A stretch of 64,000 nucleotides of DNA from NCBI GenBank assembly GCA_964486065.1, contig CAZAKN010000001.1:80657-144656 (forward strand). The letters run 5' to 3'. Positions 4,734 through 63,053 of the stretch are shown piece by piece. The stretch's first letter is position 1; each line of letters begins with the position of its first letter. The position numbers and the translations under genes are program-made. The notes under the pieces are model-generated. The model searched no databases, was not told where the DNA came from, and worked only from the letters and a program-made list of their open reading frames with translations. The stretch comes from an uncultured Gammaproteobacteria bacterium. Its GTDB lineage: Bacteria > Patescibacteriota > Patescibacteriia > UBA11705 > JABHMO01.

Positions 4734-6317
4734 TTAAACAAGCGGTCTGCCACTCATTTCGTCCGGTGGCTCAATTCCCATTAATTTCAGAATAGTGGGA
4801 GCAATATCACTTAAAACTCCCACCGGTTGCAACAAACTTAAATCCACTCCGCTCTCCGTATTATTTAAAATATTTTTTCCTTCCAATTCACGATCAATCA
4901 CAATGCAAGGAACCGGATTGGTGCTATGTTCTTTGTCTCTTTCTCCGGTTTGCAGATTCAACAATTCTTCAGCGTTGCCATGATCAGCGGTAATAACCGC
5001 CTTCCCTCCTTTAGACAAAAGAAGTTCCACCACTTCGCCAACACATTGATCAATATATTCAATGGCTGTCACCGTTTCTTTTATTTCTCCAGTATGACCG
5101 ACCATATCAGGATTGGCGAAATTCACTACCACGAAATCATGTTTTTCACGATTTAATTCTTGAATCAATTTATCGGTTACCGATCGCGCGGACATAAGCG
5201 GTTGCTCTGAATAGGAAGCCACCTTGGGCGAAGGTACCACTATTCTATCCTCTCCTTCAAAAGCGTCTTCCGTGCCTCCACTGAAAAAAAATGTAACATG
5301 TGCGTATTTTTCAGTTTCCGCGATATGTAATTGCCTGAAACCCTTTTCACTAAGCACTCTGGGCAAAGATGTTTTAATAGTCTCTTTCTGATAAGCGACC
5401 TTGACGGGTAAACCTTCTTCGTATTGCGTCATGGTTACAAATAATAAATTATCAATTTTCTTTCCACGATCAAATTTATCAAACTCCTCATCTAAAAAAG
5501 TATGCGTTAATTGCCGAGCACGATCCGCACGATAATTAAAAAAGATGACCGCGTCATTATCACCCACAACCGCTCTCGGCGAACCTTCTTTGCCGATTAC
5601 AACAGGGATAAATTCTTCATCATAAACTTTTTCTTCATACGATTTTTCAATAGCTTTTACGGGATCCTTATAATATTCTTCACTTTCGCCGTCAGTCAAA
5701 ACCTTCCATGTTTTCTCAACTCTGTCCCAACGATTATCACGATCCATGGCGTAATAACGACCATGCAAAGAAGCGATTTTGCCGACTCCGATTTTTTTAA
5801 TCTCTTTTTGTAAATCTTCAATAAAGCCTTTGCCACTATTGTAAGGTGAATCACGACCGTCCAAAAAAGCATGCACAAAAACATCTTTCACCTTATTGCG
5901 TTTAGCCAAATCCAAAAGCGCGTAACAATGCGAATTCATGGCATGAACCTTTCCTTCACTCACCAATCCCACCAAATGCAATTTGGAGTTATGCTTTTTA
6001 ACATGATCAAACGCTTCCAAAAACGCCGCGTTTTCAAAAAAACCGCCACCATCAATATCCTTATCAATGCGTGGCAAATTTTGATAAAAAATCTTACCCA
6101 CGCCGAGATTCAAATGTCCAACTTCCGAATTCCCCATTTCCCCCCAAGACAAACCAACGGCTTCTCCCGAAGCCAACAAAGTCATGGCCGGATAGCTTTC
6201 AATGTATTTATTGATGTTCGAAGTTTTGGCCAGTGAGACACCATTCCCTTCAGAATGTGGCGCCACTCCCCAACCATCAAGAATTATTAGCATTACTGGT
6301 TTTCTGTTGTCAGACAT
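4734..6317 (-). CDS. gpmI: 2,3-bisphosphoglycerate-independent phosphoglycerate mutase (copy 1)
   Basis: 527 aa; N-terminal LIILDGWG, metal-binding alkaline-phosphatase-superfamily core, C-terminal ADHGN. Confidence 0.85.
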   Translation of the reverse strand: MSDNRKPVMLIILDGWGVAPHSEGNGVSLAKTSNINKYIESYPAMTLLASGEAVGLSWGEMGNSEVGHLNLGVGKIFYQNLPRIDKDIDGGGFFENAAFLEAFDHVKKHNSKLHLVGLVSEGKVHAMNSHCYALLDLAKRNKVKDVFVHAFLDGRDSPYNSGKGFIEDLQKEIKKIGVGKIASLHGRYYAMDRDNRWDRVEKTWKVLTDGESEEYYKDPVKAIEKSYEEKVYDEEFIPVVIGKEGSPRAVVGDNDAVIFFNYRADRARQLTHTFLDEEFDKFDRGKKIDNLLFVTMTQYEEGLPVKVAYQKETIKTSLPRVLSEKGFRQLHIAETEKYAHVTFFFSGGTEDAFEGEDRIVVPSPKVASYSEQPLMSARSVTDKLIQELNREKHDFVVVNFANPDMVGHTGEIKETVTAIEYIDQCVGEVVELLLSKGGKAVITADHGNAEELLNLQTGERDKEHSTNPVPCIVIDRELEGKNILNNTESGVDLSLLQPVGVLSDIAPTILKLMGIEPPDEMSGRPLV

Positions 6318-6366: not shown

Positions 6367-7923
6367 TTATTTTATAAGCGAACCTGAAATACCTTTGGGA
6401 ATTTTTTTGATATTAAACATTTGATAAATTGTCGGAGCAATATTGGTTAAATCCCCTTTTTTAAATAATTTGACTCCCTTTTTGTCATCACTTACCAAGA
6501 TCAAAGGAACGGGATTGGTCGTATGCCAAGTCCAAACTTCATCGGTTTTCAAGTCAAGCATTTTTTCCGCGTTACCATGATCAGCCGTGACGATCAGTTC
6601 ACCTTTATTTTTCAAAACAGCTTTACTTACCTCGCCCAAACATTTATCAGTATGCTCAATCGCTTTAATCGTGGCGGGCAAATTCCCCGTATGCCCCACC
6701 ATGTCGGGATTGGCGAAATTAATGGTAATGAAATCATATTTTTTTTGTTCAATATATTTCACGACCTGTTTAGCTATTTTATAAACACTCATTTCAGGTT
6801 TCAAATCATAACTTTTAACTTTCGGCGATGGAATCATTTGCCACTTTTCATGATCGCGTGTCTCCTTGTAACCACCATTGAAAAAATATGTGACATGCGC
6901 GTATTTTTCCGTTTCCGCTATATATAATGAATTAACATTTTCCAAAATTTTTGGCACTGATTGTTCCACCTGCGCTCCGGGGAAAGCTGCTTGCATGCCG
7001 TCAAGATCCGGTCCAAAGTCGGTTAAGGCGGTAAAAGTTAGATTTTTTATAACTTTGTTTCTTTTAAAAGAATTCTTATTTCTGCGATTGAAATCTTTTT
7101 GCGCAAAGGTTTTGGCTATTTGTCTCGCCCTATCTGATCTTAAGTTGAAAAATATGACCGAATCATTGTCATTAATTCTGCTTTTGGCGACATGCTTCCC
7201 ATCGGAGCAAATCGTGGCAGGTTCAATAAACTCATCGGTTATGCCTTTGTTGTATGAATGCAAAACCGCTTGTTTGAGATTTTTAAAATTACGACACTTG
7301 CCGGCGGTCAGGCAATCATAGGCTTTTTGCGTGCGTTGCCAATTTTTAACACGATCCATGGCGTAAAACCTTCCCATCACAGTTACGATTTTGGCTTTTC
7401 CTTTAACCTTTTTTTCCACTTCATCAAGCACTTCAATTGAAGCATATTGCGGAGAGTCACGACCATCGGTGATAAAATGCAGAAAAATATTTTTAACTTT
7501 ATATTTGGCCGCCATGTTCACCAAGGCATACATATGCTGTTTATCCGAATGAGGACTGCCGTTCTTGCTAAGCAATCCGAAAATATGTAAATTAGCAGCG
7601 TTTTGCTCGGCATGCTTGATAGAATCAATTAAAATATTATTTTTTTCAAAACGACCGTTTCTGATAGATTCGGAAATAATCACCGAATCTTGTTTAACCG
7701 GAAAACCGGCGCCGATATTCATATGTCCGGCTTCGGAATTTCCAACTTGATTTTTCGGCAATCCCACTTGCGAACCATGCGCCACCAACTTGGTATGCGA
7801 ATACTTCTCCCACAATTTTTCATAATTAGGCTTAACCGCTTGTTCAATAGCATTTCCTTTCGTTTTGGGAGCCAATCCCCAACCATCAAGAATCAGCAAT
7901 ACGATTGTTTTATTTGTTTTCAT
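6367..7923 (-). CDS. gpmI: 2,3-bisphosphoglycerate-independent phosphoglycerate mutase paralog (copy 2)
   Basis: 518 aa; same signature blocks (LLILDGWG, ANPDMVGHTG, TADHGNAE) as neighbouring copy but clearly diverged sequence. Confidence 0.8.
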   Translation of the reverse strand: MKTNKTIVLLILDGWGLAPKTKGNAIEQAVKPNYEKLWEKYSHTKLVAHGSQVGLPKNQVGNSEAGHMNIGAGFPVKQDSVIISESIRNGRFEKNNILIDSIKHAEQNAANLHIFGLLSKNGSPHSDKQHMYALVNMAAKYKVKNIFLHFITDGRDSPQYASIEVLDEVEKKVKGKAKIVTVMGRFYAMDRVKNWQRTQKAYDCLTAGKCRNFKNLKQAVLHSYNKGITDEFIEPATICSDGKHVAKSRINDNDSVIFFNLRSDRARQIAKTFAQKDFNRRNKNSFKRNKVIKNLTFTALTDFGPDLDGMQAAFPGAQVEQSVPKILENVNSLYIAETEKYAHVTYFFNGGYKETRDHEKWQMIPSPKVKSYDLKPEMSVYKIAKQVVKYIEQKKYDFITINFANPDMVGHTGNLPATIKAIEHTDKCLGEVSKAVLKNKGELIVTADHGNAEKMLDLKTDEVWTWHTTNPVPLILVSDDKKGVKLFKKGDLTNIAPTIYQMFNIKKIPKGISGSLIK

Positions 7924-13840: not shown

Positions 13841-14890
13841 ATGATTGAGGATAATCAATTTAAACCCAAAAAATCCGAACAGGAAGAACAGCCAAAACAA
13901 ATGCCCGAACTCAAAGTGGCGAGGCCGGCAATCGTTCAACCGGAAACGGAACAATTACCTTATGATTCTCCCTCTCCCGACGATAAAGCGGAAGTGTTGG
14001 AAGATTTTGAGAAAATGTATGAAAATACATTAAAACTTTATCTCGGTTTGACGAAAAACGCCAAAGAGAACATGACTTACGCGCATCGTAAATTCAATGA
14101 ATCAGCGGACAAGAAAAACCGAGCCGAGAAAAAAAAGTATTCTCAAGCTCATCTGCATGCTCATCGTGCCAATCATGCGACCGAAAAAGTTATCAGTAAT
14201 TATGAAAAAGTTCTGTATAGCAAACTTCGCGCTGATGATAAAATTTTCTATTTGGTACAAATTGAAGAATTAAAAAACGAATATCGTTTCAACATGAATG
14301 AATATTTTAATATTTTGAAAACTACGGAAGATTACGAAAAAGACAAGGCGCAAGCTGAACTTCGAGAATTTGATCACCAAATCACTTATGAAGATTTGGA
14401 ACAATTATCCGTAGAACTTCATGATACGGTTTGGGACGCGGCCACTTTCACCAAATATAAATTTGAAAATAAAGAAAAAATGCACAAACTGATGGGCATT
14501 TTAAGCGCTTTAATCAATGAAACCGAAGAATCACATGACCAACTTCAAGATTCATTGGTGGATGCTCATGATATTTATCACGGCAAGGAACAAGTTCGTC
14601 GCAGTTTTAATAATCACATGAGAGCCCATATAAACTTAACGACCACCTCTTATCAAGAAGTAAAAAAAGCGGCCAAAGAGCTATCGGAATATTTCACTTT
14701 ACTCAACATGCCCTTAAATAATTTAACTTCTTGGCTCAATAGATTTCAATATGAGCTTTGGGAACAACCGGAAAAACAAAAGCAAATACAAAAAATTTAT
14801 CACGATAACATCGCCATGTTTAAACAACATCTTAAAAAAACGGAAAAAGCGATTCAAGAAATAAAAGCCATTATTTACACTCACGAATAA
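13841..14890 (+). CDS. Hypothetical Lys/Glu-rich coiled-coil protein, divergent from lexA
   Basis: 349-aa ORF, low complexity charged/helical; no motif recognised. Confidence 0.5.
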   Translation: MIEDNQFKPKKSEQEEQPKQMPELKVARPAIVQPETEQLPYDSPSPDDKAEVLEDFEKMYENTLKLYLGLTKNAKENMTYAHRKFNESADKKNRAEKKKYSQAHLHAHRANHATEKVISNYEKVLYSKLRADDKIFYLVQIEELKNEYRFNMNEYFNILKTTEDYEKDKAQAELREFDHQITYEDLEQLSVELHDTVWDAATFTKYKFENKEKMHKLMGILSALINETEESHDQLQDSLVDAHDIYHGKEQVRRSFNNHMRAHINLTTTSYQEVKKAAKELSEYFTLLNMPLNNLTSWLNRFQYELWEQPEKQKQIQKIYHDNIAMFKQHLKKTEKAIQEIKAIIYTHE

Positions 14891-15943: not shown

Positions 15944-16333
15944 TTACTCTTTCTCAGACATGTTTTTAAACTGCTCATAACTACCAATTCCGGCAAAGTT
16001 TATTTCAAAATTAGCATTATCTATTTTATCAATTCTTACTGAGTCAATCCCCAAAATATGCAATCTTTCGTATGTCAAAAGCTCTCCCTCTTTTAACCTC
16101 AAAACATCTCTTAAAATCCATTGTCCAAGCTCTTGATTTGAATATGACATAAGTGCTTTCCCTCCATCTTGGCAGCTTTTAGCTTTCATTTTTTTGCCAT
16201 TTGGAAGTTTTAAATCAAATGACGTTTCCCTGTCAGGAAAAAAACTTGGGAAATTTCTGTGAATTTCCGCTGGAATTGGAATATATACCTCATTAGGGTG
16301 GCGCTCTCTACCACCAGCATTCCATTGATTCAA
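15944..16333 (-). CDS. Hypothetical protein, putative restriction endonuclease component (second cistron)
   Basis: 129-aa ORF whose ATG overlaps the stop of the upstream ORF (ATGA), immediately downstream of m5C-MTase; no motif recognised. Confidence 0.4.
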   Translation of the reverse strand: MNQWNAGGRERHPNEVYIPIPAEIHRNFPSFFPDRETSFDLKLPNGKKMKAKSCQDGGKALMSYSNQELGQWILRDVLRLKEGELLTYERLHILGIDSVRIDKIDNANFEINFAGIGSYEQFKNMSEKE

Positions 16334-17067
16334 ACCGCTTTTTTCAAAAACTGTTTGATTTCGGCCGTAAAGAGGAAGGTAAACTGTTTGCTTAATTTTT
16401 GCTTCTTTCTCAAATTGTAAGTCTGTTTTTTAAGTAATTTTCTTAATTCTAAAAGCGGGTCTTCCAAAATATCAACATTAAACTCATAAACAATCGGCTC
16501 CGTGATAAATCTTTTTGTGAGTGTGCTTTTGGAAACTAAAAAAGAGTAATCATGTTTACAGTCCTCAAAAGCAATAGAGCCTTTTCGTTCTTTAATGTTT
16601 TTGATATTGGCTATATCCACTTTATCCATTGGCTCCTCGAAAATCATAAATTTTCCTTTTTCTCTGATTACGCAATGGTAAATAGATTTTTTCAAAGCGT
16701 GTGCATTTTCCGTAAATTCAATCCTAGCGTTTCTCAACTCAGAAACTTTGATGATCAATTTTTCAGGAGATAGATTTTCATAAATTTTTCTATCATTGTT
16801 AAATTCAGCAACTTTCTGAAAAGTTCTATTATTGTTAGCCAAAAAGGTTTTTAGACCAATTCCCAAAACATCTTTTTTTGCATCTGCCGATACATCACTT
16901 CTTGATAAATCTTCCGCTTCAAAAGCACGACAAAAAATCTTTTCCGCAACTCGATAGTATAAATAAGGAATTTTTGATTCTGAAAAAAGATTAGAAAGAC
17001 AACCTGCAATTCTCAAAAAATGCTCGTATTCTTTTTGAAGATCAGATTTTTGAGTTTGGAAAAACAT
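16330..17067 (-). CDS. Putative type II restriction endonuclease (uncharacterised family)
   Basis: 245-aa ORF 5 nt downstream of the m5C-MTase gene, same strand; function by position only. Confidence 0.4.
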   Translation of the reverse strand: MFFQTQKSDLQKEYEHFLRIAGCLSNLFSESKIPYLYYRVAEKIFCRAFEAEDLSRSDVSADAKKDVLGIGLKTFLANNNRTFQKVAEFNNDRKIYENLSPEKLIIKVSELRNARIEFTENAHALKKSIYHCVIREKGKFMIFEEPMDKVDIANIKNIKERKGSIAFEDCKHDYSFLVSKSTLTKRFITEPIVYEFNVDILEDPLLELRKLLKKQTYNLRKKQKLSKQFTFLFTAEIKQFLKKAV

Positions 17068-17071
17068 ATTT

Positions 17072-18031
17072 TTAGTTAGTTAAAGCTTTTTTCATATTTG
17101 CAGCGATTCTTTGAATAACCGGAATTGAAACAGAATTACCAAATTGTTTGTACAGATGAGAATCTGCAATGTTAGGGAGTTTATAATTCTTTGGAAAACC
17201 TTGGAAATTACCACATTCTCTTGGCGTTAACTTTCTAATTCCTTTTCCGTTTAAAACCAAAGGAACATTATGACCACCCATTCCCATATTTGCCGTTAAA
17301 GTAGGACAAACCTTATTTTTATTCTCTCTAACATATTTTCTTCGCCATTGATAAACAGTGTCTCGTTTTTTGACTTCCTTTTGCAATTCTTGATAAAGCG
17401 GTTTGTCATTGTAATAATATTTATCATCAACTTCATTTTCTTCTAAGCAATCATGAATTGTTTTTGTTAATTTAATCTTTTCTGGAAAAGAAAATTTGTC
17501 ATGAGCTTTTTTGTCTGAAAATCCAACAATATATATTCTCTCTCTATTTTGTGGAAGATTCCCATATTCCATTGTATTTAAAACTTTTACTTTAACAAAA
17601 AAACCAAGTTCTTTTTCTAATTTTTCAATAATAATTTTCATTGTGTTTCCTTTGTCATGTGTTTTGAGGTTTTTTACATTTTCAAGAAGAAAAGCCTTTG
17701 GCTTTTTAGCTTTTAAAATTCGTACAATATCAAAAAACAAATTCCCTCTGTTTTTCTCATCATTAAACCCTTGTTTATATCCCGCAATAGAAAAAGGTTG
17801 ACATGGAAAACCACCACACAAAACATCAAAATCAGGAATTTTTGAAGTCGGTATTTTTTGAATATCGCCAAGTACCATTTGTTTTTCGGTTTCAAATATT
17901 TCAACAAAATTAAAATCAAATGTTGTTTTTGCATTTTCATCAAAATCATTGGAAAACACACATTGAAACCCGGCGTTTTCAAAACCAATTTTTATTCCAC
18001 CTATACCGGCAAATAGATCTATGAATTTCAT
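17072..18031 (-). CDS. DNA (cytosine-5)-methyltransferase
   Basis: 319 aa with canonical m5C-MTase motifs: I (DLFAGIGG), IV (GGFPCQPFS), VI (ENV), VIII (QNRER), X (QFGNSV). Confidence 0.9.
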   Translation of the reverse strand: MKFIDLFAGIGGIKIGFENAGFQCVFSNDFDENAKTTFDFNFVEIFETEKQMVLGDIQKIPTSKIPDFDVLCGGFPCQPFSIAGYKQGFNDEKNRGNLFFDIVRILKAKKPKAFLLENVKNLKTHDKGNTMKIIIEKLEKELGFFVKVKVLNTMEYGNLPQNRERIYIVGFSDKKAHDKFSFPEKIKLTKTIHDCLEENEVDDKYYYNDKPLYQELQKEVKKRDTVYQWRRKYVRENKNKVCPTLTANMGMGGHNVPLVLNGKGIRKLTPRECGNFQGFPKNYKLPNIADSHLYKQFGNSVSIPVIQRIAANMKKALTN

Positions 18032-45567: not shown

Positions 45568-46482
45568 TTACTTTGAATATGAAATCGTAAAATAGCTGGT
45601 AGTAAAATCAGGATCATTACCTGATATTATATATGAATTGGAATGATTAATAATATTAACCTCACGATTATCCAAGATTTCCATAGTTCTCATCAAAATC
45701 TTCAAACAAATTGGCGAATCCAAATAATCACTATTAAATTCATCAAAAAATTTATAATTCCAATCATTAATTGCTCGTTCCGTTTCAGCATCTTTACTTT
45801 CAGCTTCATCAAAAGATAAATAATGGGAAAAATCAATGGAAGCAATCAGCAAAGAATTCTCGTCGGATTCTTTAGCAATACTTTGTGATAAAGTTTCCAA
45901 ATCATTAAAACGAGAAGTGAATATCATAGGAACAATTTCAGCTTCCGGAAAATAATAATTAATATATGGAATCAATACTTTTAGAGAGTGTTCTCTGTAA
46001 TATTGATTATAATCGTAATCAATATAATTATTTTCTCTAATTTTCAATAATGTTTGTTTATCAATATCAATTTTCTCAGCATTGATCTCAAAACCGGCCG
46101 GATAACTTATAATCGGCTCCCCTTGATCTTCATGATTTGGTCCGATTAAAAAAATTTTTTTTACATCTCGACAAGAAACCTTACTCATGGCTTCGGCAAT
46201 CAAATCCCCCGCCAAATTATGATGCGGCACAACTAAACCTTGAGGATAGACCTTGCAATTATCTTTAATTAATGGATAGTCTTTAACCGCATTATAAAAA
46301 TACACATCATTCATTGCAATATGAATGAATTCAGAACTGTCTCTAACAATCCGTTTATTTATTGTTTTGTTTTGGATTTCAAAAATATTATTATTATCAA
46401 TTGGCAATAAAATAAAAATCATACCGGCAATCAATATGATTACCGATATGATTAATAATAATTTCTTCTTACTCAAGCGCAT
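45568..46482 (-). CDS. Membrane-anchored MEMO1-family (AmmeMemoRadiSam system protein B-like) protein
   Basis: 304 aa; N-terminal TM helix; Memo-like motifs (VVPHHNLAGD..., REHSLKVLIPYI); start codon overlaps stop of giant upstream gene (TAATG). Confidence 0.6.
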   Translation of the reverse strand: MRLSKKKLLLIISVIILIAGMIFILLPIDNNNIFEIQNKTINKRIVRDSSEFIHIAMNDVYFYNAVKDYPLIKDNCKVYPQGLVVPHHNLAGDLIAEAMSKVSCRDVKKIFLIGPNHEDQGEPIISYPAGFEINAEKIDIDKQTLLKIRENNYIDYDYNQYYREHSLKVLIPYINYYFPEAEIVPMIFTSRFNDLETLSQSIAKESDENSLLIASIDFSHYLSFDEAESKDAETERAINDWNYKFFDEFNSDYLDSPICLKILMRTMEILDNREVNIINHSNSYIISGNDPDFTTSYFTISYSK

Positions 46483-49400
46483 TAGTAATTGATTTTAACT
46501 TTTCCGGCATCAGAGTAATTCATAATATCAGTAGCACTCAATGATTGAATAACCGCCGGTTCGGACACATATTCACCGGGATTTAACACTTTGGCATAAT
46601 AATTTAATGTTGGATAATCTTGCTTATCTTGTCCTTGATAAAGGATAAATTTAATTTTTTGCCCATCAATTTCAATCGGTCTTTTGGAATAATCAATTCG
46701 ATACTTTGATAAATCATTATATTTATATAACTCTGTCATGGATTTCATTCCACTCGGTAAAAAATCAACAATTTCATATGCTCCGGCAATCGCATTTTTT
46801 TTAATATTTACATTCAATCTAACTTCAATTAAATCATCTTTATCAAATTCAGTAATTTTTTGTCCCTGCAAGTTATAATAACTTTTTTGTACTGAGACAT
46901 AATCACTTGTATCCACTGTTTCAATATCAAATTTCTTATCATATTGACTTACAATACCTATTTCTCCGGAAATATTAGAAAACTGCACAGAAGCCAATTG
47001 CTCGGGATTCAACCTAAATACTTCCATTTTTCCTTTTGCCAATTCCTTATGATAAGTTTCTCCATTTATAGTAATATCAAATGATACTTCCGAAGGAATT
47101 AAATTTGGTAAAGTATTTTGCAAATAATTTAGTTTTTCCAAATTTAATAATATATCCTTGGTTTGATACCTTACCACATAATCCCAAAAAACCGGGGCTT
47201 CGGGTTTATTTAATCCTCCTCCCAACAAGGCAGCTAAAGCGGTTAATTGCATGTAATCATCTTCATCTTCACCAAAAGCAATTCTTTTGTATGGTGATAA
47301 ATCTTCAACATAATCTCTCACCACGGAATCATAAAGTTCTTTAGCCAATTCATAACTACCGATTTCATAAGCGGCTAATCCCAAATACAATTTATCTTTA
47401 ACCGTTAATTGTTCAACCTCGGAAAAATACTGAATCTGCAACAACACAGGCTCCTCCAAGGAAGCTAAACCATACAAAGCCATTACAATTTCATCTTGAT
47501 TTGAATCGCTATTCTGCAGAAATTCATAAAAATATTTCTTCAAAAAAACCTTATCAAAATAATCAGTATTCAACGCTGCAACTCTGGCTGATAACTCAAG
47601 TTCACTGTCCGAATATGGCAATAATGAAATTCCCCCATTTTTCAATTGGTAATTAATCGCTCTTATTTGATTATTACTATTATTTTCAATTTCATAATAT
47701 CTACTTAACAAATCAGAAGCTAAAACATTGGATAATTTTTGATCAACTCTTTGACCACCATACCGGCTCAATTTTCGCAAATCATAGTAATATTGTCCCA
47801 TGGACTTATCAGTAATAATCAATTTCGTTTCCCCATCTCTACTACCTTGAATAATTACATCATCATTCAATTCATAAAAATCTTGTTGTTCTTTGGTTAA
47901 TCTTGATTCTATGACATTAACTTTTTTCAATATAGCATCATTACCTTTTAACGATTCAAGTGAAACTTTCACATCACTTGCTCCCAATATCAATTTATCA
48001 ATTTGAGCATAAGTATCCTTGTAAGCATTTGCTTGTTTTACAATCTTTTCCGGTTTAAAATCAGGCGTTTCAACAGTAAAAGAAACTTTATCCTGAGCAG
48101 ATAATTCCTTACCATAGGCTCGCAATCTAAGTACGGGTTTGTCATCAAGCAAATATTCATCACTAATATCTGTCTTTACAAAAGCAGGTAAAGAAACATC
48201 TATATTATGCCAACTAATTCCCGCTTCAACATTTTCCGTAAAAGCCTTGGCGATAATTCTCCAAGAAGTTAAATTGTCAGGTAATTCCAATTCCACTTCC
48301 GCTTTTCCGTTTGCGTCGGTCGCAACATTTTTTGAAGTAAAAGCAGTGTCTTTAAAAACAGATCTAACAGTACCACCTTTATCATTGTGAACATAAATTC
48401 CATCAGCAATATAAGTATGGTATTTATCTACGGTAATGTTATAAACCGGTACAATCTCCTCAACTTTATCAATTTTTTCAATCACAACTAACTTATTATC
48501 CTTATCACGAAGCAAATCTCCAATCTTAGCGTTGCCAATCATGTCCCAGCTACCATTCAAATACACCATATGTTCCGGAGTAATTTTTAATTTATCATTA
48601 ATAATATAATATCCGGATACAATATGTTTGAAAGTATTTGATACTTCACCTGAAACCAATTCTCCTGAATGCATATCTTTAAAAGTCATAATTTTATCCC
48701 CTTCAACAATATCCTCAATATTCTTCAAACTCCCATCTGCCATTAAAATCTTTGTTCCATGTAAAAAGCAACCACCACCTTCAACATTATCTTCTGTATC
48801 AGGATAATCATGTGTATGCTTATTCAAAATACTACCCGTTCTCAAATTTGCATACAAGGTTTGCAAAATACCCTTTTCAACTCGGCTAATCTTAAAAATT
48901 GCTTCGTCTACCAAATTAACACTCAAAGAGGCTTTTACCGGTTTACCTTGATTATTTTTTACGGTTACAAAAACTTTAGCTTTTTCTCCCGGCTTGTATT
49001 CATTCTTATCCGTTGATATATCAATTCTCAACTCTTTGTCTTCATAATCATAAAGAATATTCGTACCATCTAACCTCTCAAGCCAATTATTTGATTTTGA
49101 CATGTGATATGTCTCCCCGTCAAAATATACTCCCGCCAAATAAACATTGGGGACATGTTCTTCTCCAAAAATAAATCTATATTCAGAATTATCAGTAACA
49201 TCATATCCCATTAAGCCATTTTGCAATCGCATATATAGATAAGCATCTCTTTCATGTATCGGTGTTCTTTCATTTCCTTTAGAAAATTCCGCGACTACCT
49301 CTTCGCCTAAAGAAAAATATTCATCATCATTCATCAATTTTATTTGATATCTATTTTCCAAAAAGAATCTAGAAAAAGATTTAAATGATAGATAACCGCT

Positions 49401-52097
49401 AGTAGCGTCATGTCTTCCATTATCATCTTCAACCGTAACATTAACAACATATCTACCTTCCGGATCCACATCCAAATCATAAATAAATTCTCCATTTTTA
49501 TTGGTAACACCTTCAAAAGTTCCTATTTCTATATCATTATATACATACTTGTATTTATCCCGAGTAACTTTATTAATATAATCATAATATTGTCCGATAA
49601 CTATCTTTTGAGATTCTTTTTTGATAATTCTTCCTTTGACTTTTTTGTTTTCCGCAGGATCATAATTTCTATTTTCAGAATCAGAATAAAGATATGGGAA
49701 TTTTTCTTCACCACTATTCAACTTATCAATATCCAAATCAGCCGCCAAAACTTTTATCTTAGCCTTATTGGGATTTTCTTTTTCTCGATCAAAGAAAACC
49801 CTTGAAGTCAGCTTAGCACCCAAAACTCTAACGGATACATAATCATTAATATCTGAAAATTCTTGCTGTGCCGGATCAATATATATACCATCATATCTTG
49901 GATAATGACAATTACTTGAAGAAATATCACAATCTTTGAATGTAGTATTTTTAATATAAGTCACTTGTCCTTGAGAATCTGTTTTAACAATCTCACCTTC
50001 AACTTCCAAATCCAAATTAGCCAATGGGGTTCCCTCAAAAAATGAAGCTTTAATATCAACTTTTATCGGATCTCCAGCATAAACATAATCTGCTTGCGGA
50101 CTGGATTCAAATGTATAGGCTGGCTTAACATAATCTTCAACTGTTATATACTTTCCCGCATAATAAACATCATCCTTAATCAATTGCAAAGCATAATGAC
50201 CGGGCAAAATCCCCTCAAAGCTTAATTTTCCTTCAAAAACACCATCTTCTCTTACATTCACTTCCTCCACCGCTGCACAAATTTCATTATTATATATATC
50301 GTAATAATTACCTGATTTACATAATTTTATTTGCATTGTATCCATCTTTTCCATTTCATCACTTCTCGGTAAAATAGTTCCCCAAACATTAATTTCATCC
50401 GTTGTTTTATATATTTGTCTATCACTGGCAATATATTTCCAATATTTACTACCAATATCAGCAACAGGATTTAAATTAAATCCTGAATAATAATTTCCTT
50501 CTTTTTCCGCTGAATCACGAAATCTTTCAGTAAAATTAAGAATACTGATATTTTCACCTTTTGTAACCTTGAAATAATAATCACCAAGTTCAGGGTCAAT
50601 CATTTCCCTTGTATTAAATAATGCAACTCCATCCTGATTCGTTTTTTCTTTCATTCCATTACCAATCACTTCTATTGAAGCATCAGCAACAGGTTGATCT
50701 GAATCAATATCATTAACCCAAAATAATGTTTCGTCCTTCATGACTTGCGCGAAAACCGCATAATCGGTAATTTGAATCAAAATTTGATCATTATCTTCTT
50801 TTCCTGAAGAAGCTTTTGCTAAATAATAACCTTTTGGTAACTCTTCCGGTAAAACAACTAGATAACTATAATACCAATCATCATTTTTCACTACCGGTAA
50901 ATCATACTTTCCAACTTCAGACAAATTATAATTACTTAGATCCAAATCCAATTGTCTTTTATATGACCAATAGGGATACTTTAGTTTTTGATTTACAGCG
51001 GAAATAAAATCATCCGGAGAGTTAAAAGCTCTTAATTCAAGTGAAATAGTAGCATTCTTTTCAACACCTCTTACTCCTAAAAATGGATTAACACTTGTTG
51101 AGAAATCAACAAAATCATCATTAAAATTAAAAGAATGATAATCACGCTGAATTACTTCTTCTTTTGGAAGAGTTTCAAAACTGAATTCAAAATTATTTCT
51201 TAATTTTTCTTCACTTCCCTCTAATTCTAATTTATCTTTATCAATCTTTACTGTATAAATCGTACCGTAATCTAAATCCTTTTTAGGGACAAAAACCAAA
51301 TCATTTTTATGAACTTCAAAACTTCCTTCAATCTTGGGATCAATTGAGAAGGCATTGACATGATTTTCAAATCCCAAATGACTAAATTTAATTTCAATAC
51401 CTGTATTTACGGGAACTTGATTACTTTTATCGCGAGGTAATGAACTCAAAATCTTAAACTCGTTTCTTACTTGAAAAGCCCAAGAATAATCACTGGCAAC
51501 CTCTTTCCCATTTTGAGCGATATATGAAGCTGCAATTTGTAAGTTATAAACTTTGTTTTCATTCAATTCTTCTTTTGGAACTACTTTAAACTCATGATCG
51601 TTGATTTTTTCAATTTGAAAATCAATTGCCGGAGATAAAGTGATACTTTTTCTCAAAGTTTCCAAATCAATTTTTTGTTGACTTTTAACCACAAATTGAG
51701 ATTTGGAATAAATCCCCATACTGTCACTTTCTGTCGGTTCTACTTGGAAATTGTCATGCGCATAAGCAGAATTTATAATTAATCGTGAAACTTTCCCCAA
51801 AGGAGAAACCGGCTCGGAATCATGGAATAAAAATTGCATTGAAGCAAAAACAACGGCAATAATCAATACCAATGATACTGCCGGCACGAAATAACGAAAA
51901 TTAAAGATTTTCGCCAAATTTAATTTTTTCATATTACTTTTTTTGCGCCGTTGTTCCAATATCTTCGCTTTAAGTTCTTGGCGAAAATCATCAGAAGCAG
52001 GCTGATTAGTGTAGTTAGCATACATAATATTTCTTTCTGCTTCTGATAACGCTTTTTTATTGAATTTGTTACACTTTTTATTGTTTTTTTCTTTCAT
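46482..52097 (-). CDS. Giant (1871 aa) single-pass membrane protein with alpha-2-macroglobulin-like (MG/A2M/TED) ectodomain and embedded Hint domain; N-terminal cytoplasmic segment is a candidate anti-sigma domain
   Basis: TM helix at ~aa 68-88; A2M-family block after the Hint domain (TVRSVFKDTAF...LPDNLTSWRIIAKA...SLPAFV vs A2M VRKYFPETWIW...PDTITEW...PFFV); TED-like region with degenerate thioester site (SRYGGQR in place of PYGCGEQ); 18 nt downstream of ECF sigma gene. Confidence 0.6.
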   Translation of the reverse strand: MKEKNNKKCNKFNKKALSEAERNIMYANYTNQPASDDFRQELKAKILEQRRKKSNMKKLNLAKIFNFRYFVPAVSLVLIIAVVFASMQFLFHDSEPVSPLGKVSRLIINSAYAHDNFQVEPTESDSMGIYSKSQFVVKSQQKIDLETLRKSITLSPAIDFQIEKINDHEFKVVPKEELNENKVYNLQIAASYIAQNGKEVASDYSWAFQVRNEFKILSSLPRDKSNQVPVNTGIEIKFSHLGFENHVNAFSIDPKIEGSFEVHKNDLVFVPKKDLDYGTIYTVKIDKDKLELEGSEEKLRNNFEFSFETLPKEEVIQRDYHSFNFNDDFVDFSTSVNPFLGVRGVEKNATISLELRAFNSPDDFISAVNQKLKYPYWSYKRQLDLDLSNYNLSEVGKYDLPVVKNDDWYYSYLVVLPEELPKGYYLAKASSGKEDNDQILIQITDYAVFAQVMKDETLFWVNDIDSDQPVADASIEVIGNGMKEKTNQDGVALFNTREMIDPELGDYYFKVTKGENISILNFTERFRDSAEKEGNYYSGFNLNPVADIGSKYWKYIASDRQIYKTTDEINVWGTILPRSDEMEKMDTMQIKLCKSGNYYDIYNNEICAAVEEVNVREDGVFEGKLSFEGILPGHYALQLIKDDVYYAGKYITVEDYVKPAYTFESSPQADYVYAGDPIKVDIKASFFEGTPLANLDLEVEGEIVKTDSQGQVTYIKNTTFKDCDISSSNCHYPRYDGIYIDPAQQEFSDINDYVSVRVLGAKLTSRVFFDREKENPNKAKIKVLAADLDIDKLNSGEEKFPYLYSDSENRNYDPAENKKVKGRIIKKESQKIVIGQYYDYINKVTRDKYKYVYNDIEIGTFEGVTNKNGEFIYDLDVDPEGRYVVNVTVEDDNGRHDATSGYLSFKSFSRFFLENRYQIKLMNDDEYFSLGEEVVAEFSKGNERTPIHERDAYLYMRLQNGLMGYDVTDNSEYRFIFGEEHVPNVYLAGVYFDGETYHMSKSNNWLERLDGTNILYDYEDKELRIDISTDKNEYKPGEKAKVFVTVKNNQGKPVKASLSVNLVDEAIFKISRVEKGILQTLYANLRTGSILNKHTHDYPDTEDNVEGGGCFLHGTKILMADGSLKNIEDIVEGDKIMTFKDMHSGELVSGEVSNTFKHIVSGYYIINDKLKITPEHMVYLNGSWDMIGNAKIGDLLRDKDNKLVVIEKIDKVEEIVPVYNITVDKYHTYIADGIYVHNDKGGTVRSVFKDTAFTSKNVATDANGKAEVELELPDNLTSWRIIAKAFTENVEAGISWHNIDVSLPAFVKTDISDEYLLDDKPVLRLRAYGKELSAQDKVSFTVETPDFKPEKIVKQANAYKDTYAQIDKLILGASDVKVSLESLKGNDAILKKVNVIESRLTKEQQDFYELNDDVIIQGSRDGETKLIITDKSMGQYYYDLRKLSRYGGQRVDQKLSNVLASDLLSRYYEIENNSNNQIRAINYQLKNGGISLLPYSDSELELSARVAALNTDYFDKVFLKKYFYEFLQNSDSNQDEIVMALYGLASLEEPVLLQIQYFSEVEQLTVKDKLYLGLAAYEIGSYELAKELYDSVVRDYVEDLSPYKRIAFGEDEDDYMQLTALAALLGGGLNKPEAPVFWDYVVRYQTKDILLNLEKLNYLQNTLPNLIPSEVSFDITINGETYHKELAKGKMEVFRLNPEQLASVQFSNISGEIGIVSQYDKKFDIETVDTSDYVSVQKSYYNLQGQKITEFDKDDLIEVRLNVNIKKNAIAGAYEIVDFLPSGMKSMTELYKYNDLSKYRIDYSKRPIEIDGQKIKFILYQGQDKQDYPTLNYYAKVLNPGEYVSEPAVIQSLSATDIMNYSDAGKVKINY
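48384..48770 (-). other. Hint (intein-like / BIL-type) domain, residues ~1110-1238 of the giant protein
   Basis: Begins GGG|CFLHGTKILMADGS (intein block A: Cys1, T-x-x-H region) and ends ...VYNITVDKYHTYIADGIYVHN| (block G, terminal His-Asn); +1 residue is Asp, not Cys/Ser/Thr; ~129 aa mini-intein size, no endonuclease. Confidence 0.7.
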
Positions 52098-52114
52098 ACA
52101 CTTAAATAATTATC

Positions 52115-52684
52115 TTATTTTGCGTATTTTTCGTAAATTTTTGCAAATTTATTTATAGCTCTAAGGCTTAAAACTCTGGCATTATTTGTTGAAATCTTCA
52201 TAATTTTAGCTATTTCATCGTAATCTTTCTGCGCAAAATATCTCAAATTTATTACTATTTGATATTTAACGGACAATTTACTTATTAAGTAACTTATGAA
52301 CTCCTTATTATAATTGTTATCCACTATCTCTTTAATATCATATTTTTGATCAGCTACCTGGATTTTTGAATCTTCCTTATCCAAGCTGATATTTTTTGCT
52401 TTTGATTCTTTTCTGTAATAATCCGTTAAATGATTGGTCGCGATACGATAAAGCCAAGCTGAAAACGAGTATCCCTTGAATTTATATTTATGTAAATTGG
52501 TGAATACTTTTAAAAATATTTCTGAAACCAAATCTTCACATACCTCCTTATTTCCTGTTCTTTTATAAATATATCCATAAATTTTGGGGAAATAAAAATC
52601 ATACACTACCCCGAAAGCATGGTCATCTGTTTTAGCTTGTTCAACTAATTCTGCTTCGTTTTCCAAAATACTCTTTTGATACAT
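52115..52684 (-). CDS. ECF-type RNA polymerase sigma-70 factor
   Basis: 189 aa; region 2 (FLKVFTNLHKY...YRIATNHLTDYYR) and region 4 HTH (DYDEIAKIMKISTNNARVLSLRAINKF). Confidence 0.8.
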   Translation of the reverse strand: MYQKSILENEAELVEQAKTDDHAFGVVYDFYFPKIYGYIYKRTGNKEVCEDLVSEIFLKVFTNLHKYKFKGYSFSAWLYRIATNHLTDYYRKESKAKNISLDKEDSKIQVADQKYDIKEIVDNNYNKEFISYLISKLSVKYQIVINLRYFAQKDYDEIAKIMKISTNNARVLSLRAINKFAKIYEKYAK

Positions 52685-52754
52685 ATAAATATGTGAATAT
52701 TATACCACAAAAAAAACAGCCGAGCTAAGCTCGGCTGTTTAAATATTGAAAGAT

Positions 52755-59917: not shown

Positions 59918-60409
59918 TTATTTTTCTTCATTTTGTTCATCAAGCTTGGCGATTCCGTCTCTAGTCAATTCGTAACAGCCCGACTCTGGGATTTTCATGT
60001 CACGATTTTCAATCCCCGATTCCAGATAAAACAAAACCTGAAAGCCAGTCGTTGCCAATTCTCCGAAAGCGTAATCACAAGGTTTTTGACAATTTTCCGC
60101 GCATGAAATTTGTCCGAGAGGATCATGGAAATTTCGTAATACCGGAAATATTTCCGCCAATTCACCATCCGCCTCGCAAGCATTGACCAAAGCGCCTTCT
60201 TCACACCCTGCGCCGGTAAAATCAAGCCCTTTATCTCCCGCGTATTTAAGCATAGCCGTCCCCAAACTTTCCATGTCGCTGATTCTTTTAGCGTCCCGTC
60301 CTTTCTCGCGAATATTGCTGAGCGAAATCACCGCCACAAATAGCAAAATGGCGATAATCCCCATCACCACCAACATTTCAATTAAAGTAAAACCTTTATA
60401 ACTTTTCAT
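59918..60409 (-). CDS. Type IV pilin / pseudopilin
   Basis: 163 aa; KGFTLIEMLVVMGIIAILL prepilin motif; Cys-rich C-terminal domain. Confidence 0.7.
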   Translation of the reverse strand: MKSYKGFTLIEMLVVMGIIAILLFVAVISLSNIREKGRDAKRISDMESLGTAMLKYAGDKGLDFTGAGCEEGALVNACEADGELAEIFPVLRNFHDPLGQISCAENCQKPCDYAFGELATTGFQVLFYLESGIENRDMKIPESGCYELTRDGIAKLDEQNEEK

Positions 60410-60569: not shown

Positions 60570-61166
60570 TCAATCTTTATAATATACTTTTATTTGGAAA
60601 GAATATTCCCCAATCTCCGACAAATTATTCAAAGCCATGATTTCCATGAATCTTTCATAATCTTCCAGCTCTCGAATAAAACCGATTAAATCGTTTTCTT
60701 CTTCCGTTTGTAAATTGAAAAACGCGAAATAATGCTTTTTCTCACCGGCTATCTCTTCTTCCGGTAATTCAACATTAAATTTATAAACATGGAAACCGTA
60801 AGCTCCGGCGATTTGTTTTAAATCCAAAAACAAATCACGGGAATCCAAACCTCGTGGCAAAGCTTCACGATAAGCTTCACCCGCTCCGAACAAATAGTAG
60901 TTTTCCGAACTCATTTGAACATTTTCTTGAAGCTCCCCCCGAAAAGCGATTATTTTATGCTCTTGATCTTTTAAAGTTTGATAATCATGATACACGGCCG
61001 ACAAAGGTTTATACCATGCCACGGCGATAGCTAAAATCATAATTATCGTCATAATAGACAAAATTTTACCATGATTATCCGCTACTTTTCCCATTGCCTT
61101 AATTAGCCAAGACAATTTCTTTTTTGTTTGCGTTTTTTTATTACTTTTTTTTATTTTATCAAACAT
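60570..61166 (-). CDS. PilO-like bitopic membrane protein (pilus assembly)
   Basis: 198 aa; N-terminal basic tail, single TM, periplasmic domain; assignment by topology and operon context. Confidence 0.45.
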   Translation of the reverse strand: MFDKIKKSNKKTQTKKKLSWLIKAMGKVADNHGKILSIMTIIMILAIAVAWYKPLSAVYHDYQTLKDQEHKIIAFRGELQENVQMSSENYYLFGAGEAYREALPRGLDSRDLFLDLKQIAGAYGFHVYKFNVELPEEEIAGEKKHYFAFFNLQTEEENDLIGFIRELEDYERFMEIMALNNLSEIGEYSFQIKVYYKD

Positions 61167-61167
61167 A

Positions 61168-61956
61168 TTAATTATTCAAAGTTACGATTAGCCTCCATCC
61201 ATCGCCGGCAGGTTCTTCCGGCTCTTCCAGAGATTTCACGGTGGACATTGCTTCAATGGCCTCTTTTTCACTTTGTATATTTTCTTCCGCGACACGCATA
61301 ACCAACTCCACTTTCATGTCTTCCACGCGTTTAAGACTTATGAATTCTGAATTTTCATTTAAACGCCCGTGCAATTCACTGTAAAAATCATTAATTTTTG
61401 ATTCTTCACCCAAACTCCACAATTTACCATTAGATTCTTTTAACGATGTGAATATTTGCTCTCTCTCTCCATAAGCCAAAACTTCATGGTGAAGACCGGC
61501 AACAAGATTTAAACGATCACGCAATTCTTCATGTAAATGTCCGCGCCAATAAGCAACACCGAAATAACCGATATTAAAAACGGAAATCGCCACAAATAAA
61601 GCTAAAGCTAATTCTTTTTTTAATTCCCAAAACCGTTCGGCAATATCATCTTCAACCAAGGTTTTTACTTCTTGGCTTTCACTTTTAATTGGCTTATCAT
61701 TGACCGCAATGTTGCTACGCTTACGAATAATAAAGTCACCTTTCGGAACATTAGAGACCACATCCAGAGCTTCAACTTTAAGCCAAGCTTCTCCATTTTT
61801 TTTAATTTCATCATCTTGTTTTTTTCCCAATTTTTGGTCTTGTGGAATATGCATTTCAAAAGAAGGCGGCCGTTTGTTTTGTGTCGCTTTTTTCTTTTCT
61901 TCCTCTTCTTTTCTTTTGTATTCTTCCGGTAATAAATTGGCTCCTATGTGCCCCAT
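61168..61956 (-). CDS. PilN-like bitopic membrane protein (pilus assembly)
   Basis: 262 aa; cytoplasmic N-terminal region, TM (LALALFVAISVFNIGYFGV), periplasmic coiled coil; directly downstream of pilM. Confidence 0.45.
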   Translation of the reverse strand: MGHIGANLLPEEYKRKEEEEKKKATQNKRPPSFEMHIPQDQKLGKKQDDEIKKNGEAWLKVEALDVVSNVPKGDFIIRKRSNIAVNDKPIKSESQEVKTLVEDDIAERFWELKKELALALFVAISVFNIGYFGVAYWRGHLHEELRDRLNLVAGLHHEVLAYGEREQIFTSLKESNGKLWSLGEESKINDFYSELHGRLNENSEFISLKRVEDMKVELVMRVAEENIQSEKEAIEAMSTVKSLEEPEEPAGDGWRLIVTLNN

Positions 61957-61970
61957 GGCGCTAATGATTA

Positions 61971-63053
61971 TTATTCAATATCCCGCATGGCCAATCCCAC
62001 GGCCGTGGCCAACCTCGGTCCCAAAGCGGTCAATACCGGTTGCAAATCTTGCGGATAAATAACTCTTGCCCAAGGATTGCCGATAAATGTTCTGATGCTC
62101 AAGCGAGAAGTAAAATATTCAGATAAATTGAACAGATTCGCCGTGCCACCCGATAAAACAATCCGACTGATTTTTTTATGTTTGTTGCCTGGTTGTTCCA
62201 AATGAAAATTAATAATGTATTCAACTTCTTGAAGTATCGCGTCAATAGTCCGCTTGATAATGCGTGGCATTTCATCTTCACCGGCGAACATCTCTTCATT
62301 GCTTTCCAAATCGCGTTTAAATTGTTCAGCTTGTTTCACATCAACTTGTAAAGTATCAGCTATGGCTTGGCTGATCTGTAAACCACCGACTGCCACCGTA
62401 CGACTGACCAGAGGAATACCGTTTTCAATCACCGCGATGTCCGTTCCTTTTGCGCCGATATCCACCAAAACCACGACCGAACGATCTTTGCCAACCATGG
62501 CTCTGGACAAAGCGAAAGATTCGGTTTCCAAACTAAGCAGATTCAAATCGGCTTTTTTGAAAATATCAATATACTTTTTAACCACATCTTTAGCCGCGGC
62601 GGTTAATAAAACTTGCGACACTTTGCTGTCTTCTTCATCCCTTTCCAACATTTTCCAATCCAAAATCATTTCTTCCAACGGCATCGGCAGAATTTTAACG
62701 GCCGCTTTTTCCACTTCTTCCGTAACCCGCTTGGCGGAGGATAGATCCTTTTTCTCCAATTTCGGCAAAGCCAAAATTGAACTGAACACGGCTTGCGCCG
62801 GCAAAGCCGTAACCGCTCTTTTGGTGATTATTTTGGATTGTTTAACCACTTTTTTTATTCTTTCAGCGGTTTTTTCCGGTTCATCAATCAATTTGCTTTT
62901 GCCTCCCGCCAAGGACCTTTCCAAATATCCGTAAGTAACCAATTGCGCTCGCCCGTTATTATTGGTCAATTCAACCATTTTGATACTGCTTCCACCAATA
63001 TCCACACCCAAAAAATTGGCGTCATTGCTTCCTTTTGAAGAAAAAATTCCCAT
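61971..63053 (-). CDS. pilM: Type IV pilus assembly ATPase-fold protein PilM (actin/FtsA-like)
   Basis: 360 aa; phosphate-1 motif GVDIGGSSIKMVEL and actin-fold blocks. Confidence 0.8.
   Translation of the reverse strand: MGIFSSKGSNDANFLGVDIGGSSIKMVELTNNNGRAQLVTYGYLERSLAGGKSKLIDEPEKTAERIKKVVKQSKIITKRAVTALPAQAVFSSILALPKLEKKDLSSAKRVTEEVEKAAVKILPMPLEEMILDWKMLERDEEDSKVSQVLLTAAAKDVVKKYIDIFKKADLNLLSLETESFALSRAMVGKDRSVVVLVDIGAKGTDIAVIENGIPLVSRTVAVGGLQISQAIADTLQVDVKQAEQFKRDLESNEEMFAGEDEMPRIIKRTIDAILQEVEYIINFHLEQPGNKHKKISRIVLSGGTANLFNLSEYFTSRLSIRTFIGNPWARVIYPQDLQPVLTALGPRLATAVGLAMRDIE

Follow-up and report, generated by a model that had tools for sequence, protein, structure and literature searches.

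An extracytoplasmic function sigma factor gene beside a candidate anti-sigma factor with a thioester-less alpha-2-macroglobulin-like ectodomain and a Memo-family partner in candidate phyla radiation bacteria

In the anti-sigma factors RsiV and RsiP, the regulated site-1 cut is made by signal peptidase. RsbN, the anti-sigma factor of BldN, crosses the membrane once; its short helical domain in the cytoplasm is unlike that of any other anti-sigma factor, and RsbN was reported as limited to Streptomyces. In the normal design of anti-sigma factors, the module on the sigma side is constant while the outer domain varies. Regarding the bacterial alpha-2-macroglobulins (A2M), those of type I carry a CxEQ thioester and a disordered bait region (Arg923-Leu942 in ECAM) and are paired with PBP1c; they are lipoproteins. 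MagD, a bacterial A2M without the thioester, still traps a protease. Furthermore, the A-type bacterial intein-like (BIL) domains are self-cleaving, and Dassa and co-workers are said to have found in 2004 that one with a native Ala at position +1 both cleaved and spliced. Here, a locus was analyzed in a 64,000-nucleotide stretch of contig CAZAKN010000001.1 (positions 80,657 to 144,656; assembly GCA_964486065.1), and this whole stretch is referred to below as the window. An extracytoplasmic function (ECF) sigma factor gene is followed there by the gene of a very large A2M-like membrane protein, termed the giant protein, and by a Memo gene. [quoted passage not shown]

The product of the first gene is, as judged by its domain content, an ECF (group 4) sigma-70 factor. 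It matches the Pfam families Sigma70_r2 (61 bits) and r4_2 (34 bits), with neither r1 nor r3, and TIGR02937 at 99.6 bits against a cut-off of 42.9; the nearest solved sigma factors are BldN (6dxo, 2e-16) and SigW (5wuq). The sigma2/sigma4-only architecture and the TIGR02937 score agree with the ECF sigma-70 call of an earlier reading of this DNA, made from its letters and referred to here as the sequence-only reading. That reading had also taken the three genes for an operon, and all three open reading frames were indeed found in the order it gave. The sigma stop codon and the ATG of the giant gene are separated by a gap of 17 nt; the close spacing it described therefore stands, with its value of 18 bp corrected. 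The stop of the giant gene overlaps the start of the Memo gene in TAATG, the translational coupling that it had pointed out. The gene upstream of the unit is that of alanyl-tRNA synthetase (alaS), and because its strong terminator precedes the sigma gene, the transcription unit should begin at the latter.

Relatives of the giant protein number at least 586 in species-representative genomes. Eighty loci with their flanks, from Patescibacteria, Bacillota, Chloroflexota and one Actinomycetota assembly, were examined through six-frame calls of open reading frames, in which start codons are approximate. Among the four genes on either side, only Memo (+1) and sigma (-1) recur, and clustering of these neighbours across the 80 loci returned nothing else that was recurrent. 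The Memo gene lies directly downstream on the same strand in 48 of the 71 evaluable loci, usually with an overlap of 1 or 4 nt, and the A2M-Memo pair is kept across Patescibacteria, Bacillota and Chloroflexota. An ECF sigma gene is located directly upstream of the giant gene in 25/80 loci. Its distance from the giant gene ranges from -62 to +46 nt in 23 of these 25, the exceptions being locus L028, with a gap of 164 nt, and locus L075, where a large overlap results from over-extended calling of the reading frame. What is widespread is the A2M-like/Memo pair, which forms the core, and a subset of loci has the sigma gene in addition. Conservation of the sigma, A2M and Memo order among relatives, which the sequence-only reading had named as a check of its proposal, was observed. 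The closest relatives of the giant protein come from Patescibacteria (CPR) assemblies, and several relatives labelled "uncultured Gammaproteobacteria" cluster among CPR sequences, contrary to their label. In public annotation the relatives are named "Ig-like domain-containing" or "polymorphic toxin-type HINT domain-containing".

The evidence for an anti-sigma role of the giant protein comes from its N-terminus, which is predicted to lie inside the cell because the N-terminal flank of the transmembrane (TM) helix is rich in Lys and Arg. Both the hydropathy scan and AlphaFold support the cytoplasmic segment of about 65 residues and the single TM helix that had been described from the sequence. 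In the AlphaFold model of residues 1-899, the N-terminal module consists of two helices (14-26 and 38-53) followed by a basic linker, and in the family alignment its conserved core comprises helix 1 and the helix 2 pattern "P..dF+..L+..l", with L17, F38 and L42. The length of this region follows the presence of the sigma gene. In every sigma-linked locus the start of the first TM helix falls within residues 54-129, against residues 4-52 in 39/43 sigma-less loci; the values for the sigma-less loci are upper bounds, because each reading frame was taken from its earliest possible start codon. A long N-terminus is accordingly present in 26/26 sigma-linked loci and in 4/43 sigma-less ones (Fisher p=3.9e-15). 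In a tree of the ectodomains, sigma-linked members are scattered, and sister taxa differ in both the sigma gene and the long N-terminus (L001 and L015; L027 and L005), indicating that the two were repeatedly gained or lost together. Moreover, divergent sigma subtypes go with divergent N-termini.

The module is also found on other ectodomains. Eleven sigma homologues (34-54% identical) were traced to their contigs, and nine of them precede an A2M-like gene, usually with Memo. In L082 (7560-10028), a sigma homologue (51% identical) is followed by an 822-residue DUF3160 protein, in a region syntenic with the window (mnmA, alaS, sigma ... rpsM, rpsK, rpsD, rpoA), and in L087 (2968-4986) a further one (51% identical) is followed by a 672-residue VWA protein. 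Both proteins start with the same module and TM helix, their frames overlapping the sigma stop by 11 nt, and a hidden Markov model (HMM) of the module built without them matched the DUF3160 protein at E=5e-8 and the VWA protein at 1e-10. An HMM search of the initial related loci had placed the module in family members only; the new loci were added by the sigma-guided look-ups. A second sigma gene is present in L003, L011 and L038, where its partners are unrelated small membrane proteins or zf-HC2 proteins, and the module is therefore specific to the sigma lineage of the window type. Because it is confined to genes that have a sigma gene beside them and moves between ectodomains, the module behaves as an anti-sigma domain. 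From these comparisons we consider it probable, with some confidence, that the N-terminus of the giant protein is such a domain, and the anti-sigma-like architecture suggested by the sequence-only reading gains support from the same co-occurrence and portability. A third type of N-terminus, "..L..G.S..DI...L...GW...DI..", was observed in the giant homologues of L012, L020 and L033 and has no Pfam match. No sigma gene lies upstream in L033, and the upstream regions of L012 and L020 are contig ends; this third type may be a different cytoplasmic adaptor.

On the other side of the membrane, profile searches and structural models both show that the whole ectodomain is of the A2M/complement family. 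Pfam matches of the giant protein are Big_5, bMG3, A2M_BRD, PT-HINT/intein_Cterm, A2M and bMG10, which means that the A2M, MG-type and Hint families named for searching in the sequence-only reading were all matched. A profile of 44 homologues matched E. coli ECAM in the PDB at 2.6e-26, together with Salmonella A2M, CD109, C5 and human A2M. The AlphaFold model of residues 900-1871 has a predicted local distance difference test score (pLDDT) of 86 and a predicted template modelling score of 0.68, and its Foldseek match to ECAM reached 4e-35. For residues 1-899 (pLDDT 82) the best PDB match was also ECAM (2e-20), and the matches included Salmonella A2M and the C3 beta chain. Taken over the two models, the best PDB matches were ECAM, Salmonella A2M, CD109, A2M and C3-C5. 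An ectodomain of MG and TED-like domains, as had been proposed before, is thus what profile searches and AlphaFold with Foldseek returned. The segment G-Q-R-V-D-Q of the TED-like domain is taken as the counterpart of the CxEQ thioester site; its R1450 is invariant in the family, and distant type-I hits of the same search keep CxEQ. The giant homologue of L033 has CTEQ at residue 1432, by motif alone the sole CxEQ match among 126 members. Close to the membrane, the A-Y-A motif aligns, in the family alignment, with the position at which Firmicute members with short N-termini have a canonical signal-peptide cleavage site, and it is a candidate for a cut by signal peptidase or a site-1 protease.

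The position of the bait in the giant protein is occupied by a Hint domain, which the sequence-only reading had named merely as a family to search for. It scores 40.3 bits against PT-HINT (cut-off 27.7) and 29.3 bits against intein_Cterm, lies between A2M_BRD and A2M/MG7 and aligns with the bait domain of ECAM. The insertion falls within a Gly-rich linker, and the flanking linkers have low pLDDT. Most CPR members of the family carry a Hint domain at this site. Hint-less members have a short linker there, GAE-GGG-GGDG-xR..F.DTA.F, with about 10 residues of Gly linker, and in some Firmicute members the site is filled by loops of 20-100 residues that are not conserved. Gly-1, Cys1 and the terminal His-Asn never vary across 53 homologous Hint domains, in which the TxxH block is conserved as well; in the window, Cys1, T1173/H1176 and H1237-N1238 are all present and the residue at +1 is Asp. 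By these conserved residues the domain appears catalytically intact. The +1 residue of the 53 domains is D in 26, E in 12, A in 8, Q in 6 and S in 3, and never C or T. A canonical (class 1) intein was considered and rejected, because position +1 holds D, E, A, Q or S, never Cys or Thr, with no conserved Cys/Ser/Thr. The features of the domain, on which the assignment is based, fit those of A-type BIL and pretoxin HINT domains. With a mean identity of 47% against 33% for the host and a co-divergence of r=0.78, the Hint domain looks long-resident and selected, since it is more conserved than its host and diverges along with it. Its presence is independent of both sigma and Memo.

The third gene product matches PF01875 at 80 bits and TIGR04336 at 111 bits and has an N-terminal hydrophobic anchor. 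Of 49 Memo partners, 46 have the N-terminal anchor, and at least 90% keep His87, His88, His117, His165, Asp217, His220 and Asp255. It is predicted to be a membrane-anchored, extracytoplasmic protein of the Memo/LigB family, in agreement with the membrane-anchored Memo-family protein that had been recognised from the sequence. AMMECR1 and radical-SAM genes do not recur beside the module across the 80 loci and were not seen among the window reading frames scanned; with these partner genes absent and Memo extracytoplasmic, the locus differs from the AmmeMemoRadiSam system. In several lineages Memo is fused to PGA_cap (CapA-like capsule synthesis; PF09587, 250 bits), and in others a separate PGA_cap gene flanks it. 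These fusions and neighbours were observed in L012 (5653-7428), L014, L018, L080, L084 (from 13173), L083 (14014-14564, minus strand) and L086 (5307-6995). The PGA_cap association hints at a link to a surface polymer.

Promoter motifs were analyzed upstream of and within the unit. A motif upstream of the sigma gene, termed P1, is present in 17/25 related loci, with the pattern [T/C]G[T/C]AA[T/C/G]-N15-17-CGTTA or a GATTAT-type -10 and the consensus TGTAAT-N16-CGTTA; the pattern was derived from the same sequences as this count. Its background is 0.006 per 130 nt, and it occurs upstream of the giant gene in 0/38 sigma-less loci. In the loci retrieved later through their sigma genes, P1 was found in 7/10 at -33/-32, and the other three have near matches by eye. 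ECF sigma factors typically regulate themselves from a group-specific promoter with AAC-type -35 and CGT-type -10 elements, and a motif like P1 upstream of its own sigma gene is what such self-regulated operons usually show. Locus L027 carries the same TTGTGGTATAAT as the window, followed by P1. A second ECF-type motif, termed P2, lies inside the giant gene, in frame 0, in 14/35 sigma-linked genes including that of the window and the VWA-linked gene, and its consensus and spacing equal those of P1. Codon 1 of P2 is Cys (TGT) or Arg (always CGT), codon 8 is Ala, Ser or Pro (always NCG) and codon 9 Leu (TTA or TTG). With the amino acids taken as fixed, a naive calculation puts the probability of these codons at about 1e-16, a figure that overstates their significance because the sequences are related, yet synonymous sites should be saturated at such divergence. 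In the window alone, 7 motifs of the P2 type were found against 6.3 expected, and the single match is not significant. The codon choices, together with the match to the P1 consensus, indicate selection at the DNA level. An in-frame Met is present 8-25 residues before the TM helix in 14/14 genes that carry P2. In the window this is Met56, which may start a signal-anchored isoform without the anti-sigma helices, and such a short isoform from P2 would match the architecture of the sigma-less homologues. The coordinates of the features are collected in Table 1.

Table 1. Positions of the genes, domains and motifs of the unit in the window
Feature	Position in window	Strand	Remarks
ECF sigma gene	52115..52684	-	189 aa
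Giant protein gene	46482..52097	-	1871 aa, single-pass membrane protein
Memo gene	45568..46482	-	304 aa
N-terminal cytoplasmic module, residues 1-66	51900..52097	-	candidate anti-sigma domain
Single TM helix, residues 71-88	51834..51887	-	hydropathy scan and AlphaFold helix
A110-Y-A112 small-x-small motif	51762..51770	-	conserved, just before first ectodomain strand, 22 residues after TM
Ectodomain, N-terminal half: Big_5, MG-type domains, A2M_BRD	48816..51761	-	Pfam, AlphaFold
Hint (intein-like) domain, residues 1110-1238, 129 residues	48384..48770	-	junctions GGG|C, HN|D
Ectodomain, C-terminal half: A2M/MG7, CUB-like, TED-like, C-terminal MG10	46485..48383	-	Pfam, AlphaFold
Helical TED-like domain, residues 1433-1665	47103..47801	-	AlphaFold model
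G-Q-R-V-D-Q, residues 1448-1453	47739..47756	-	in place of CxEQ; no thioester cysteine
Internal ECF-type motif P2, TGTAAC-N16-CGTTA	52047..52073	-	codons 9-17 (C-N-K-F-N-K-K-A-L) of giant gene
Met56 (SN-M-KKL)	51930..51932	-	conserved, in frame, between helix 2 and TM; candidate start of short isoform
Extended -10, housekeeping-type, TGGTATAAT	52699..52707	-	14 nt upstream of sigma ATG
Intrinsic terminator of upstream alaS	52714..52740	-	12-bp stem, 7 GC pairs, then T-run

On the basis of compared sequences and predicted structures, on which every functional statement here depends, the process by which the unit would signal can be described as follows. At rest, the two helices of residues 1-66 would bind the sigma factor and sequester it at the membrane. 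Damage to the A2M-like ectodomain, or a conformational change within it, would destabilise the anchor, and attack by a protease is the likely cause. This destabilisation may run through a juxtamembrane cut at A-x-A and subsequent intramembrane proteolysis, as in RsiV and RsiP. The freed sigma factor would transcribe its own operon and would also fire the internal promoter, giving a short signal-anchored A2M isoform from about Met56 together with Memo; such an isoform could restock the surface protein without additional anti-sigma factor. Furthermore, a cut by the Hint domain at the bait site would divide the protein into two chains, which would remain together. The most plausible signalling route appears to be exposure of the AYA site through a conformational change in the A2M part. 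An alternative to such exposure is constitutive cleavage, by which release of the sigma factor would be coupled to protein export. The relay favoured by the sequence-only reading, in which bait cleavage by a foreign protease is passed on through regulated proteolysis, is a conjecture.

Several observations weigh against this interpretation of the unit. About two thirds of the members of the giant-protein family have no adjacent sigma gene, and the window has no ECF-type promoter P1 upstream of its own. The cytoplasmic helices are modelled at moderate confidence (pLDDT 56-77), and searches of Pfam and the PDB with 25 N-termini gave no credible match to a known anti-sigma family or solved structure. 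In NCBIfam, one weak "anti-sigma factor" hit was obtained, for 1/25 members at E=6.5e-4, and the module contains no recognisable curated anti-sigma domain, whether class I zf-HC2/RsiW-like or other. Absence of sequence similarity to anti-sigma factors is weak counter-evidence, because the RsbN domain resembled nothing until its structure was solved. An alignment of the module against a set of 5.8 billion proteins gave nothing at E<=0.01, the module being too short for a database of this size. As for the ectodomain, the CxEQ thioester is missing in the window protein and in 125/126 family members, and the bait is a Gly linker of about 10 residues or a Hint domain, not a long disordered bait. 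With the thioester absent and the bait reduced in this way, protease trapping is at most a putative function. A cut at the bait or by Hint would leave about 1000 residues, the distance of this site from the membrane, on the outside and so cannot by itself yield a substrate for an intramembrane (site-2) protease. In addition, no site-2 protease gene was present among the window reading frames scanned.

Other explanations of the same data were weighed. Coincidental adjacency of the sigma and giant genes might be suspected from the large share of family members without a sigma gene next to them, but the pairing in 25/80 loci and after 9/11 independently retrieved sigma homologues, with overlapping or near-touching frames, and its perfect correlation with the N-terminal extension contradict it, and this explanation was rejected as scarcely credible. 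It is improbable, too, that the extension is something other than an anti-sigma domain, kept mainly as host of the internal promoter and a leader, with the sigma factor controlled otherwise or not at all. Part of its conservation is clearly at the DNA level and no known anti-sigma family matches it, but helix 2 is conserved at the protein level in clades without P2 (Peregrinibacteria-type members and Peptococcaceae), the reading frame of the extension runs unbroken into the TM helix over 54-129 codons of AT-rich DNA, a different sigma subtype is accompanied by a different N-terminal sequence type, and module and TM helix were transferred as a unit to other ectodomains. Greater weight, within the range of the unlikely, is given to the explanation that the N-terminus does bind the sigma factor while the ectodomain is a structural surface protein or adhesin of an episymbiont instead of a protease sensor. 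In that case the sigma switch would respond to the protein's export or turnover, or to attachment and mechanical load, and not to protease attack. Such a role would suit the loss of the thioester, the replacement of the bait by Gly linker or Hint, the N-terminal Big_5 domains, which are Ig-like, and the presence of the same module on VWA and DUF3160 ectodomains, neither of them a protease trap; autoproteolytic, force-sensitive anti-sigma factors (RsgI/SEAL) are moreover known. It accounts less well for the full A2M set of BRD, MG7, CUB, TED-like and MG10 being kept across three phyla and for the long variable loops at the bait site of some Firmicute members, which resemble protease baits, and the trapping by MagD shows that loss of the thioester does not preclude this function.

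The role of the Hint domain was considered separately. It is possible, and somewhat doubtful, that it is a resident mini-intein-like parasite with no role in the module, which removes itself and restores the Gly linker. Its insertion exactly within the conserved GAE-GGG/GGG-xR linker, the resemblance of the sequence that excision would restore to that of Hint-less relatives, and its independence of sigma and Memo are what such a parasite would lead one to expect. However, C or T at +1 occurs in 0/53 domains and S in 3/53, so canonical splicing is unavailable, no homing endonuclease is present, and the domain is more conserved than its host while co-diverging with it. Furthermore, the bait is a variable position, as is usual for BIL domains, and not a conserved catalytic site, as for inteins. 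Rather unlikely is a damage sensor of two isoforms, in which the full-length protein is the sensor, the freed sigma factor leads through P2 to a tail-less isoform and Memo, and Hint replaces the lost thioester. Hint would then supply a reactive (thio)ester, either pre-cutting the protein into two chains or joining Gly1109 covalently to an attacking nucleophile.

The surroundings of the unit in the window are housekeeping genes of a small genome, including mutS, mutL, ribosomal protein genes, rpoA and genes of glycolysis and type IV pili. GC content is 35-44% over most of the window and 31-32% across the giant gene (46001-52000). A further region of low GC (31%) at 16001-18031 contains a C-5 cytosine DNA methylase gene (17072..18031) and, beside it, a reading frame of 245 residues (16330..17067) without a Pfam match; this region is possibly a restriction-modification island. 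Next to the enolase gene, cofactor-independent phosphoglycerate mutase is encoded by two paralogues in tandem (4734..6317 and 6367..7923), with PGK two genes further. Reading frames of 742, 349, 198 and 262 residues have no Pfam match at E<=1e-5; they are located at 29888-32116 (+), at 13841-14890 (+) and, for the last two, at 60570-61956 (-), where they sit in the type IV pilus cluster together with PilM (61971..63053) and a pilin-like reading frame (59918..60409).

The individual parts of the unit, namely ECF sigma factor, single-pass anti-sigma factor, A2M, Hint and Memo, are all of known kinds, and their arrangement is apparently undescribed. Literature searches found nothing relevant on anti-sigma or ECF factors with macroglobulins, or on A2M with Patescibacteria, and A2M goes without mention in the main text of the paper that re-classified the ECF factors. 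The sequence-only reading was aware of no A2M/anti-sigma fusion, and no description of one was found. The same applies in this literature to the A2M-Memo pair as a widespread cassette of monoderm and CPR bacteria, a Hint domain at an A2M bait site and a promoter embedded in an anti-sigma reading frame. We know of no earlier report of a Hint domain inside an A2M-family protein or at its bait site. If the proposed unit is correct, it would link two well-studied systems that were previously unconnected, the A2M-type protease traps and ECF sigma/anti-sigma signalling. Monoderm and candidate-phyla bacteria would then have the defence protein itself as a direct sensor of attacks on the cell surface, and surface defences could be switched on when that protein is attacked. 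A sigma-dependent promoter kept by codon choice within the anti-sigma frame would be a compact means of uncoupling output from feedback. Among the bacterial A2Ms, the giant-protein family would represent a third type, marked by a TM or signal anchor, the lack of a thioester and the pairing with Memo.

Comparison with known systems places the unit between these two fields. Regarding signalling, the closest counterparts are RsiV-sigmaV of Bacillus and Clostridioides and RsiP-sigmaP, in which a single-pass anti-sigma factor meets a hostile enzyme or drug with its outer domain. There, a site-1 cut by signal peptidase is followed by an intramembrane protease, and the window protein likewise has a membrane-proximal A-x-A. 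It differs in that its ectodomain is an A2M-family structure of 1780 residues, not a small lysozyme-binding domain, and in its N-terminal module, for which no similarity could be detected. The pair of RsbN, with its class III anti-sigma domain, and sigmaBldN is similar in other respects, since BldN is the closest solved sigma factor and RsbN is also single-pass with a short helical domain. In RsbN, three helices fall within 91 residues, whereas the window module is modelled with two within 66, and no sequence similarity was detected between them. The RsgI/SEAL anti-sigma factors also use a self-cleaving extracytoplasmic domain for signalling; the SEAL domain adjoins the membrane, whereas Hint is an unrelated fold located about 1000 residues from it.

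Regarding the ectodomain, the type I A2Ms (E. coli ECAM/YfhM and Salmonella A2M) are the best matches in sequence and fold, with the same order of MG, BRD, CUB, TED and C-terminal MG domains. Unlike them, the window protein has no thioester, is anchored by a TM helix and not by a lipobox, and has Memo and sigma as partners. The type II A2M of Pseudomonas, MagD/YfaS, is similar in being thioester-less and membrane-associated and in working with operon partners. MagD is encoded in the six-gene mag operon of Gram-negatives, where MagB provides its anchor, whereas no mag-like neighbours recur in the 80 loci, and the window protein has its own TM helix, a Memo partner, N-terminal Big_5 domains and the Hint insertion. 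Finally, the Hint domain resembles the A-type BIL and pretoxin-HINT domains in Cys1, TxxH, the C-terminal His-Asn, the lack of a nucleophile at +1 and its location in a variable region of a secreted protein, and like them it would be expected to cleave itself. It differs from the A-type BIL domains in that the Hint domains of this family are vertically inherited and more conserved than the protein that carries them.

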